Source: Alphaproteobacteria bacterium (GTDB lineage Bacteria > Pseudomonadota > Alphaproteobacteria > Paracaedibacterales > JAKBAR01). Taken from it: 27,376 nt of DNA. The stretch is taken from assembly GCA_019745755.1 (NCBI GenBank), contig JAIESS010000017.1, forward strand, positions 1-27,376, read 5' to 3'. Below, one piece after another: positions 5,667 to 24,513 of this stretch; position 1 is the first letter of the stretch, and each line of letters opens with the position of its first letter. A program made the translations under genes and the position numbers. The notes under the pieces were generated by a model that had not been told where the DNA came from, did not search any database, and saw nothing but the letters and a program-made list of their open reading frames with translations.

Positions 5667-5698
5667 TTAACTTTCTGTTAAGAATCTCTTCCCATAAT
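5667..5698 (+). promoter_or_regulatory. CtrA-type box plus -10 upstream of the T1SS operon
   Basis: TTAA-ctttctg-TTAA (5667-5681), a GAATC (GANTC) site at 5682-5686, an 11-nt gap, then CATAAT (5693-5698); ATG at 5731. Confidence 0.7.
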
Positions 5699-5730
5699 AA
5701 CAGAAGAATAGAACAGGTAGGCGTTATTTT

Positions 5731-7491
5731 ATGAGCACAATAGCAGCTTTAGGGATTCAAGATAAAACGAAATCAGCCACATCAGGTGCGCGATCAAATA
5801 CCCACGGAGCTCATGAGGCTTTTTCGGACACTGCTAGCCAACAAGAAAAGCCAGGATCATCCATTATGCAGCCATGGAAGCGCATGGATGTTGTACTGAG
5901 TACAATTTGTCTCAATATATTTGCGGTCATTTTACCCGTGATGATTCTTCAAATCTATGACCGTATCATTCCAAACCACGCCCTTGGCACATTATCCATC
6001 CTTGCTGTTGGTGTTTCCATTGCTGTTGTTCTTGAATGTATTTTACGTATTGCAAGAAGTTATATCCTGAGCTGGATTGGTCAACAATTTGACTATAGTA
6101 CCTCTGTTTCTGTTTTCTCACGACTCATGAAAACGGATCTTTACTCTCTCAATCGCATGGGTGTCGGTGAGCATATTGAAAATATGGAAAGCCTTGGCAC
6201 CTTAAAAGAATTTCTTGCAGGGCAAAGCTTTTTGATTTTTCTCGACCTTCCCTTCCTTTTATTTTTCCTTGCCCTCATTGATTATTTTGGTGGACGTTCC
6301 ATTACTATCGCATCCGTTGTCATACTTATTTTCTTCGCCATTTCAGCACTTTATCTTGGCCATAAACTTCATGAAACCCTTGTCGAACGACAAAACATTG
6401 GTGATCGTAAATACAGCTTTCTTATTGAAATGCTCAATAATTACCACACCGTTAAATCCCTTGGCATAGAATCTCTTTTTCTAAGACGCTTTGAGCGTAT
6501 TCAGCTTCAATCATCTTTTATTGAATATAAAATTAATCTTCATAGCAGTGAAGCAAGAGATCTTGGGTCTATGTTTTCAAGTATTCTTTTCGGTGCAATT
6601 ATTTATGTCGCTGGCAATGAGGTTATTCATAACACTATTTCTCCTGGTGCCATGGCGGCATGTCTTTTTTTAAGTAATCGTGTGATTCAACCCTTGCAGC
6701 AAGGTCTTTCTGTCTGGACGCGGTTTCAATATTTCAAAATCGCTCAAAAGCGCTTTGATGCAGTGTTTAAACTTCCTATGGAAACGGATAGGGGTAGCAA
6801 AATAACATTAGAAGGCAGCATCACCTTTAAAAATATATGTTTTAATTATGAGAATACAGATCACATTCTTTTCAAAAACCTCAACCTGCATATTAAAAAA
6901 GGGGAATTTATCAGTATTATTGGAAAGAGCGGTGCGGGTAAAACAACATTGTCCCAACTTATGTTGAGCAATATTTATCCAACATCAGGGGAAATCCTCA
7001 TGGATGGCACCCCCTTAAGCACCATTAATATTCCTCATTTTCGCAAACAAATCGCCTATCTTGCGCCAAAGGGAGAAATTTTTAATGGCACCGTCATGGA
7101 TAATCTCACCTTTTTTTCACGACATACCAACGTTCATCATGTCAAGGAACTGTCTCGTCAAGTGGGGCTTGATCGTTGGGTAAGTCAGCTTCCTTACGGC
7201 TATGATTCTATCATTGGGAACAACCTTGATAATGATCTTCCTCTTGGCGTTCAACAACGCTTGTGTTTTGTGAGAGCTCTTCTTCTAGCACCTCGTATTC
7301 TTATACTTGATGAAGCAAATACGAACATGGATGTGGAGGGAGACACAGAACTCTTGAAAGTCCTGGATCGCATTAAAAGGAATATGACAATTATCTTCAT
7401 CACCCACAGACCCAGTATTGCGCGTATGGCGGATCGTATATTTGAGGTGAAGGATCAAACGATTATCGAAAGAAATGCGTATGAGCTATAA
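5731..7491 (+). CDS. Type I secretion system ABC transporter (permease + ATPase), no N-terminal C39-like domain
   Basis: LQIYDRIIP (PrtD/HlyB-type TMD start), Walker A GKSGAGKTT, Walker B ILILDEA, H-loop ITHRPS; signature motif degenerate (LPLGV). Confidence 0.9.
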   Translation: MSTIAALGIQDKTKSATSGARSNTHGAHEAFSDTASQQEKPGSSIMQPWKRMDVVLSTICLNIFAVILPVMILQIYDRIIPNHALGTLSILAVGVSIAVVLECILRIARSYILSWIGQQFDYSTSVSVFSRLMKTDLYSLNRMGVGEHIENMESLGTLKEFLAGQSFLIFLDLPFLLFFLALIDYFGGRSITIASVVILIFFAISALYLGHKLHETLVERQNIGDRKYSFLIEMLNNYHTVKSLGIESLFLRRFERIQLQSSFIEYKINLHSSEARDLGSMFSSILFGAIIYVAGNEVIHNTISPGAMAACLFLSNRVIQPLQQGLSVWTRFQYFKIAQKRFDAVFKLPMETDRGSKITLEGSITFKNICFNYENTDHILFKNLNLHIKKGEFISIIGKSGAGKTTLSQLMLSNIYPTSGEILMDGTPLSTINIPHFRKQIAYLAPKGEIFNGTVMDNLTFFSRHTNVHHVKELSRQVGLDRWVSQLPYGYDSIIGNNLDNDLPLGVQQRLCFVRALLLAPRILILDEANTNMDVEGDTELLKVLDRIKRNMTIIFITHRPSIARMADRIFEVKDQTIIERNAYEL

Positions 7492-23268: not shown

Positions 23269-24444
23269 CTACTTTTTCCATGCATTAAAGTGTCTCAACA
23301 TGGCCACTCGAGCGGCGAGATTATTAGCAAACGTTTGATACCATTCTGGATTATCTCTTCCCATAGAAACACCTATTGGTGATCCATCCCAACTATTATC
23401 ACCCGTCACATCTTTTATGACAAGCAATAAATTGTTATCAATATCAATGTGATTTAAGGCATTTAATGGATTGGATCGAATGCCGAAATAATCAGAATCA
23501 GCTGAGGTTCCAGGCCTTGTTAAAATTTCTGATGCTTTTACTGAAAACCCATCAACGGCTGCGCTTATCTTACCTTGTAGAGTAATGTCGGGAACTTGAC
23601 CATATCCATTATCTAAAAGGGTATCCCTAAGAACATCAGGTATAATAGTGGTAATAAAATCTTTGTTAATGACTGGCATCTGCACACCAGAAATATCTTT
23701 TATTCTATCTTTTATATTCAATTTTTTTGTTTCTTGTATCCAGAAATTTATTTTATCCTGAACCGCTTGTACAATAGGGGCATTTGGCTTAAACAAATTA
23801 TCAGACGTGAAGTGCTTAGACACATCCACCTTGAACCATGCCTGTGCAATATCCATCAAAGCATGGGCATAAAGACTTTGAACAATGGCCTGATGCTGTG
23901 TTTTTTTATCGTCTTTATTCTTCAAGAAATATTGTTCTGTTCCTGGATTACTAAAAATATTCAATACTCCAAAAACGTTATTATTACTGTTTTTCAAAGC
24001 ATCCAACATAAAAAATTCGGCGGATATATAAATCCCCTCTATAATTACTTTAAATTCTTCTAGGGAAGGTCCTTTTGTGAGATCAATGTTAAACTGTTTG
24101 TCGCCATAAAGTGTCTGATGAAGGCGAGCTGCTGTATTTATGGTATCCACTAATGAGCCACTTCCCATTAATAACTGATCCCTTTTTGACTTAAGGTCAT
24201 TCGTAAGAGCTTCTATTACTTGGTCCCATGTTTGTTGGACTTTCACATCTTTGTCACCCTTCGATGAAGAATTTAATGTTAACTTCGACGGGGTCCCACT
24301 ACCCTTACCTAGTGATAACGTCAACGGCTTACCATCCGCTGCATATGTTGGGTAGGATGCAAGAACGATTCCGGTCCCCATAAGAGCCGTTGTGAGCAAA
24401 AGAGCCTTCGCAGTGCCTCCCAATGATTGTCCTATGTTTTTCAT
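23269..24444 (-). CDS. Hypothetical exported protein
   Basis: 391-aa ORF; extended signal peptide with LLLTTAL and a YA-AD cleavage-like site; no Cys; lower GC than the flanking slt and alaS. No family recognised. Confidence 0.8.
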   Translation of the reverse strand: MKNIGQSLGGTAKALLLTTALMGTGIVLASYPTYAADGKPLTLSLGKGSGTPSKLTLNSSSKGDKDVKVQQTWDQVIEALTNDLKSKRDQLLMGSGSLVDTINTAARLHQTLYGDKQFNIDLTKGPSLEEFKVIIEGIYISAEFFMLDALKNSNNNVFGVLNIFSNPGTEQYFLKNKDDKKTQHQAIVQSLYAHALMDIAQAWFKVDVSKHFTSDNLFKPNAPIVQAVQDKINFWIQETKKLNIKDRIKDISGVQMPVINKDFITTIIPDVLRDTLLDNGYGQVPDITLQGKISAAVDGFSVKASEILTRPGTSADSDYFGIRSNPLNALNHIDIDNNLLLVIKDVTGDNSWDGSPIGVSMGRDNPEWYQTFANNLAARVAMLRHFNAWKK

Positions 24445-24481
24445 AACTGTTTCCCTTGAATAAATAAAAATCTCTATCCTT

Positions 24482-24513
24482 AGGGTAGAACCAAAAAGTT
24501 AATACTTTCTTAA
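24482..24513 (-). promoter_or_regulatory. CtrA-type box plus -10 upstream of the 391-aa orphan
   Basis: Minus strand TTAA-gaaagta-TTAAC (24513-24498); TACCCT at 24487-24482, 11 nt after the second TTAA. Confidence 0.7.

Follow-up and report, generated by a model that had tools for sequence, protein, structure and literature searches.

CtrA-dependent promoters have been described in several alphaproteobacteria. In Caulobacter, most promoters induced by CtrA have a single near-consensus site at -35 (PMC11264516), the CtrA of Rickettsia complements a ctrA deletion in Caulobacter (PMC2877005), and the CtrA of Ehrlichia chaffeensis is a global regulator tied to developmental stage, stress or surface functions (PMC4251998, PMC9791040). 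Here we analyse a stretch of 27,376 nucleotides (nt; hereafter the window) from an uncultured alphaproteobacterium of the Paracaedibacterales (assembly GCA_019745755.1, contig JAIESS010000017.1), in which TTAA-N7-TTAA sites, one of them with a mismatch and all referred to below as boxes, precede mlaA, an operon for a type I secretion system (T1SS) and four genes for exported-looking proteins. We read these boxes as CtrA-dependent promoters of the classical type with a full motif at -35, and put the probability of this reading at roughly 0.78. The locus is a well-supported further instance of a known regulatory design, with a twist in how large the regulon is and what it contains. The assembly (1.31 Mb, 226 contigs, 70% complete) includes the window as contig C226; by a crude home-made model of open reading frames (ORFs) it has 1,234 genes, with 172 kb being intergenic.

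Boxes and -10 hexamers in the window

The original prediction, made on the window by itself, listed five perfect TTAA-N7-TTAA sites, at 5604, 5667, 11213, 18961 and 24499, and a single-mismatch site at 16275-16289. All of them are present, there are no other perfect ones in the window, and the five perfect boxes lie between ORFs as had been claimed, at least by our crude model. Five -10-like hexamers, each said to start exactly 11 nt past its box and on the same strand as the neighbouring gene, are likewise where they were placed. In front of the T1SS operon the perfect box TTAACTTTCTGTTAA (5667-5681, plus strand) is followed after 11 nt by CATAAT (5693-5698), which gives a predicted transcription start site (TSS) near 5705. 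The plus-strand promoters of a gene for a 193-amino-acid (aa) protein (11213-11244) and of one for a 269-aa protein (18961-18992) consist of a perfect box (11213-11227 and 18961-18975), an 11-nt spacer and the hexamers TACTTT (11239-11244) and TAGTAT (18987-18992), respectively. On the minus strand, the promoter of a 391-aa gene (24482-24513) has its perfect box at 24499-24513 and TACCCT at 24482-24487, and that of a 574-aa gene (16258-16289) has the one-mismatch box, which reads TTAACGAAATAGTAA on that strand, at 16275-16289 and CACAAT at 16258-16263, with the same 11-nt spacer in both. No -10 stands at the correct offset from the 24499 box towards alaS, so this box faces the 391-aa gene. The sixth site is the perfect CtrA-type box of mlaA (5604-5618, minus strand), the sole one whose -10 (TAGAAT, 5585-5590) lies at an offset of 13 nt rather than 11 nt.

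A scan of the window found no perfect box upstream of nuoB, trmB, ychF and rpsD, in agreement with what had been noted before. The rpsD promoter is a canonical sigma-70 promoter (TTGACA-N17-TAGGAA, 16382-16410), which indicates that ordinary promoters with a -35 hexamer coexist with the CtrA-box class. Between the nuoA- and nuoB-like genes there is a one-mismatch box, TTAATGAAATTTTAG (3119-3133, minus strand), 57 nt before the nuoB-like ORF and with CTAAAT 12 nt downstream of it; this is probably a chance match.

Spacing, geometry and conservation of the boxes

That the boxes as a whole are chance matches in AT-rich intergenic DNA has next to no probability left. The window had been assumed to be about 70% AT, which does not hold, as the measured value is about 58% (42% GC); the accompanying estimate of about 0.5 chance boxes stands, with 0.41 predicted from control spacings for the 2,554 nt of intergenic DNA in the window. 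Against this control density, at least five boxes have a probability of 7e-5. In favour of chance one can cite that -10-like hexamers are permissive and that, in dinucleotide shuffles of the whole window (mean 1.31 sites), five or more sites were reached in 2 of 100. The genome-wide controls contradict it: intergenic TTAA-Nk-TTAA sites number 134 at k=7 and 45 at k=6, compared with 17-35 at each remaining k from 0 to 30, and for pairs of other AT tetramers at N7 the intergenic count is 14-40. In coding regions there is no such N7 excess, the 33 sites found there being equal to the control spacings. These spacing controls refute the chance explanation, which is contradicted also by the -10 offset profile and by the conservation of boxes in relatives described below. 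Measured against the genome's own N7 density (0.76 per kb), 1.9 boxes would be expected in the intergenic DNA of the window (P = 0.048), so that the window exceeds the remaining genome in box density only mildly. An origin of the boxes in a repeat or mobile element was considered and rejected, since the flanks are unrelated and only about four similar pairs across contigs were seen among the 134 sites.

The geometry of the sites is that of promoters. Of the 134 intergenic N7 sites, 127 lie upstream of at least one gene, and the interval between box end and start codon has a sharp maximum at 47-61 nt. About 112-115 of 1,100 analysed genes (~10%) have a perfect box 20-120 nt upstream, and 79 of these also have a good -10. 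Of 84 boxes that face a single gene, 30 have TAnnnT at offset 11 and 12 have it at offset 12, with about 2-3 for each other offset; the 11-nt offset, which the original prediction had picked after inspection, thus generalises to the whole genome. Perfect boxes followed at 11-12 nt by (T/C)AnnnT are found before 63 genes with the N7 spacing and before 1-6 genes with N5, N6, N8 and N9. The -35 position of 74 of the 79 box promoters matches TTGACA at just 0-2 of six bases, which argues that RNA polymerase depends on a bound activator here, because no usable -35 hexamer is at hand. Near-consensus TTGACA-N17-TAnnnT promoters are less numerous (39, with about 24 as background).

The likeliest mechanism would be activation of the class-II type. 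A dimer of phosphorylated CtrA (CtrA~P) would bind TTAA-N7-TTAA, which would replace the -35 element and, with a start of transcription about 7 nt past the -10, would span about -38 to -24; CtrA~P would then recruit RNA polymerase to a sigma-70-type -10 (TAnnnT) 11-12 nt past the box, and the leaders of the transcripts would be short (about 23-37 nt). Promoters of this design would drive mlaA, the T1SS operon and the four exported-looking proteins in the window. Throughout the genome they form the most recognisable promoter class, are biased to proteins with Sec signals and also stand before genes for type VI secretion (T6SS), chemotaxis, flagellar and pilus-type functions and before some of the housekeeping genes. 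The sequence shows the motif with its spacing, specificity and conservation and the presence of ctrA; binding by CtrA, activation rather than repression, the timing of expression and any link to a life-cycle stage are inferred from it. It is also conceivable that CtrA binds but at many sites represses or fine-tunes a promoter that does not depend on it, as CtrA acts as a repressor at some promoters of Caulobacter and additional sites can postpone expression (PMC11264516); the mreB-like gene of this genome, whose best -10 lies about 20 nt after its box, shows that geometry varies and is not uniform. We regard this as quite improbable, because the rigid coupling to a -10 at 11-12 nt, together with the lack of a -35 hexamer, is the signature of dependence on an activator, whereas a repressor would be expected to have its sites over the -10 or the TSS.

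In several divergent gene pairs a single box lies at promoter distance from both genes. On contig C34, for example, a box between genes for an alpha/beta hydrolase and a patatin-like protein lies 60 nt from the start of the former and 54 nt from that of the latter. This arrangement suggests that the motif, whose half-sites are palindromic, may be used bidirectionally.

Conservation was followed in two genomes of the same genus (G001 and G002), one of the same family (G003) and two further relatives (G012 and G024). The first three share little synteny with the window, yet the promoters are kept. At the T1SS operon, box and -10 (CATAAT, CATACT or CATCAT) align at constant spacing in all three; mlaA has a box with no or one mismatch 41-62 nt upstream in all three, and in G001 even the unusual 13-nt offset is retained (-10 TACCAT). 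Each of the three homologues of the 193-aa gene likewise has a box with at most one mismatch. The 574-aa gene has a lone positional homologue of 24% identity, in G001, which is also divergent from rpsD; its box, TTAACCAAATTGTAA, has the same GTAA half-site and is followed after 11 nt by GATACT. Outside the window, tssB, which encodes the VipA/TssB sheath protein of a T6SS (contig C43, L104:2-478, minus strand), has a perfect box here and in five of five relatives from two families (L159-L163). The boxes of dksA and mreB are kept in both genomes of the same genus, and that of the T2SSE ATPase in G001 only, with a one-mismatch site in G003. Conservation thus differs gene by gene, and the set of boxes consists of a conserved core and a periphery that turns over.

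On a broader scale, the composite motif TTAA-N7-TTAA-N11-TAnnnT occurs 50 times in this genome and once as its reversed control, and it beats the reversed control in most of 62 genomes from 10 families of the order; the exceptions are G055, where it is not enriched, and G005, where it is so just marginally. This enrichment implies that the architecture is old and widespread. The ratio of N7 to N8 sites over whole genomes exceeds 1.3 only in the organism's own family and one other.

CtrA and the genes behind the boxes

The original prediction looked to ctrA, cckA and chpT in the genome, and of these ctrA was found. Its product (L001:1045-1812) scores 389 bits against a cut-off of 350 for the NCBIfam equivalog NF045991 and is 67-76% identical to the CtrAs of many alphaproteobacteria; the DNA-binding domain is 76-81% identical to that of other CtrAs, with a near-invariant recognition helix and wing. 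Two OmpR-family regulators are encoded in the genome, and the second one, on contig C164, could be cited in support of a different reader of the motif, be it this response regulator, a further one or a transcription factor, or RNA polymerase itself with the motif as a lineage-specific upstream element. Such a reader is very improbable in our view. The motif is the exact CtrA consensus, with the preference for N7 and the minor excess at N6 that are typical of CtrA, the protein is present with its recognition helix conserved, and flagellar and chemotaxis genes carry the box; a periodicity due to DNA curvature was looked for and rejected, as no peak at N18 and hence no 11-bp periodic signal was seen. 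As for the remainder of the circuit, only a weak, sub-threshold GcrA-like match was obtained, and contig C82 (L003:676-2580, minus strand) encodes a hybrid kinase of 634 aa whose domains are, in order, PAS-HisKA-HATPase-REC-Hpt. Since no separate ChpT was found, a fused phosphorelay that feeds CtrA through this kinase is conceivable.

What are the genes behind the boxes? A Pfam scan was made of 54 box genes, namely 50 of the 79 with box and -10 plus four genes of the window, and random box-less genes with their own upstream region served as controls (n = 30 for Pfam). Canonical CtrA target classes are among them, with fliX, fliJ, genes for two methyl-accepting chemotaxis proteins (MCPs) and the gene for a T2SSE ATPase; secretion and motility are further represented by the T1SS ABC protein, VipA/TssB and a CHASE4 histidine kinase. 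Envelope functions include two DegP-like proteases, Band-7/HflK-type proteins and a glycine-zipper lipoprotein of the 17-kDa-antigen type, and effector-like ones a patatin, a microbial PARG, a NADAR protein and leucine-rich repeat (LRR) proteins. Housekeeping functions are also served: DksA, RNase III, an aquaporin and enzymes of the GalU, DapB, PDH-E1-beta and cysteine-synthase types are encoded behind boxes, as are mreB-like, sdhB-, metK- and sucC-like genes. The expected bias towards exported orphans stood in one of its parts. Signal-peptide-like N-termini, as flagged by a crude predictor, are enriched: 43% of box genes have one, compared with 21% of controls (odds ratio 2.8, p = 6e-5). Proteins that lack a Pfam match are not enriched, with 24 of 54 box genes (44%) against 11 of 30 controls (37%; p = 0.64), so that an enrichment of orphans has to be rejected. 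The link of the box to exported proteins is therefore supported and that to orphans is not.

The T1SS operon and four orphans had been proposed to form one distinct regulon, in which CtrA would switch on the secretion apparatus along with scattered, lineage-specific exported proteins, possibly at one life-cycle stage such as an infectious form. As far as distinctness is concerned, this proposal is not supported: the same promoter type precedes about 110 genes, tssB, the MCP genes, dksA and metabolic enzymes among them, and therefore does not single out five genes of the window as a module. Some observations do favour a dedicated module of this kind, namely the enrichment of signal-peptide-like N-termini, the conserved boxes at two secretion systems (T1SS and T6SS), the effector-like box genes whose products have signal peptides (patatin, PARG, NADAR and LRR), an intracellular-looking genome and the tie of CtrA to developmental stage in Ehrlichia chaffeensis (PMC4251998). 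On the other side stand the broad membership, from dksA and the mreB-like gene to the galU-, sdhB-, metK- and sucC-like genes, RNase III and the aquaporin, and the lack of orphan enrichment. Proteins with Sec signals are not classical substrates of a T1SS, and the box genes next to the operon have Sec-type N-termini rather than those of the classical T1SS substrate type. Taken together, we consider a dedicated module rather unlikely.

A wider reading is that CtrA may be the principal activator of the host-interaction secretome in this small-genome lineage, which is similar to symbionts of the Paracaedibacter type. What speaks for it is that the box is the commonest recognisable promoter element and is conserved at T1SS and T6SS, in the latter case across two families, and that it precedes genes for fast-turning-over Sec-exported and eukaryote-like proteins (again patatin, PARG, NADAR and LRR). 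We put this forward tentatively, as a possibility that is on balance doubtful; if true, the complete set of infection tools would come under one cell-cycle or developmental switch.

Several points weigh against the boxes being CtrA-dependent promoters throughout. Control spacings predict that about 20-30 of the perfect upstream sites arise by chance. The fliX and hflK genes have no box upstream in the relatives, for which reason some of the roughly 110 sites must be regarded as young or non-functional. The signal-peptide predictor, like the gene model, is crude and home-made. In the 70%-complete genome ChpT (PF10090) was not found, and no candidate kinase gave an NCBIfam match of the CckA type, so that the expectation of these two was left without a match; given this degree of completeness, their absence proves nothing. 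Upstream of ctrA itself there is no perfect box, and autoregulation, considered on account of one-mismatch sites there, was judged unconvincing. Finally, the sole RNA run with DNA of the window (X25, of the metatranscriptome type) held one 219-nt contig and no transcript ends.

In the window, the box at 5604 serves mlaA (4721-5551, minus strand). The T1SS operon (5731-11073, plus strand) comprises, by Pfam and NCBIfam, two ABC permease/ATPases and an HlyD-family adaptor in overlapping ORFs; the adaptor scores above the TIGR01843 cut-off and the ABC proteins, of the TIGR03375 and TIGR01846 types, score below their subfamily cut-offs. An inverted repeat, AGGAAA-N3-TTTCCT, followed by a T-run (5636-5652), stands 14 nt upstream of the T1SS box and is kept in G001 and G002 in the alignment of T1SS promoters. 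On contig C134 a similar element, GAGGAAAAATTTTCCTC, precedes a further CtrA-box promoter at a distance of 24 nt. A role as operator or as terminator-like insulator is conceivable. A GAATC (GANTC) site at 5682-5686, which abuts the 5667 box, is not conserved in the T1SS promoters of the three relatives.

The four remaining genes encode proteins with no Pfam match. The 193-aa protein (11286-11867, plus strand) has a signal-peptide-like N-terminus and had been called an orphan, a status it loses, as the gene is conserved within the family at 30-44% identity. The 219-nt contig mentioned above, from RNA-Seq of wastewater, is identical to 11650-11868, the 3' end of this gene, and ends at the stop; it hints at transcription of the 193-aa gene, with carry-over of DNA being possible, and the run otherwise held fragments from other organisms. 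The other three are orphans. The 574-aa protein (14507-16231, minus strand), with a signal-peptide-like N-terminus, matched nothing in a large protein database. For the 269-aa protein (19016-19825, plus strand; translation more likely starts at the ATG at 19025), which has a hydrophobic N-terminus, no homologue was found in G001-G003, G012 and G024. The 391-aa protein (23269-24444, minus strand), again with a signal-peptide-like N-terminus, has no homologue in these five relatives and is its own sole match among 5.8 billion proteins.

With respect to lifestyle, the genome encodes a fragment of a TLC ATP/ADP translocase (contig C81, L110:3441-3881) and a protein with F-box and LRR domains (contig C198, L138:6985-7881), which point to an intracellular, eukaryote-associated organism. 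The genome occurs in metagenomes from bioreactors, freshwater, biofilms and wastewater, and these habitats together with the two proteins fit a symbiont of protists. One may be reminded of Ca. Bodocaedibacter, which has a genome of 1.39 Mb with 40.6% GC and a T6SS (PMC8163844), and we infer a likeness to it.

Comparison with known CtrA systems

The boxes provide a handle, from sequence alone, on co-regulated genes in an uncultured alphaproteobacterium of intracellular type. A scan for TTAA-N7-TTAA-N11/12-TAnnnT leads to about 60-110 candidate genes, rich in exported proteins and including two secretion systems, and this list is a reasonable first set of candidate host-interaction factors; some caution is needed, as the motif alone defines no small private regulon.

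The closest match to the promoters themselves is found in Caulobacter crescentus, whose CtrA-activated promoters also have a single TTAA-N7-TTAA site over the -35 and a sigma-70-type -10, and whose targets also include flagellar, chemotaxis and pilus genes (PMC11264516). Unlike Caulobacter, the present organism has a small, symbiont-like genome of 42% GC with no perfect site before ctrA and no ChpT found; whereas about 100 genes are CtrA-activated in Caulobacter (PMC11264516), a site precedes about 10% of genes here, as predicted from sequence, and these targets are dominated by proteins with signal peptides and also comprise T1SS and T6SS. With Ehrlichia chaffeensis of the Rickettsiales (PMC4251998, PMC9791040) it shares being an apparently intracellular alphaproteobacterium with CtrA, and it differs from it in belonging to another order-level lineage, with genes for flagella, chemotaxis and T6SS and a regulon that is predicted from sequence. 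In part of the Rickettsiales (group G of Brilli et al. 2010, PMC2877005) ChpT is also undetectable by simple searches. The regulons of Brilli et al. were, like ours, based on the motif, with signal transduction, envelope and motility functions over-represented; their evolutionary model excludes reduced intracellular lineages. In the present genome the composite motif has an exceptionally high signal-to-noise ratio (50 versus 1). Finally, the divergent flagellar promoters of Rhodobacter sphaeroides (PMC6180460) resemble the arrangement here in having CtrA sites in short divergent intergenic regions that serve both strands. Unlike those overlapping promoters, the region between mlaA and the T1SS operon has two separate boxes, 63 bp apart.

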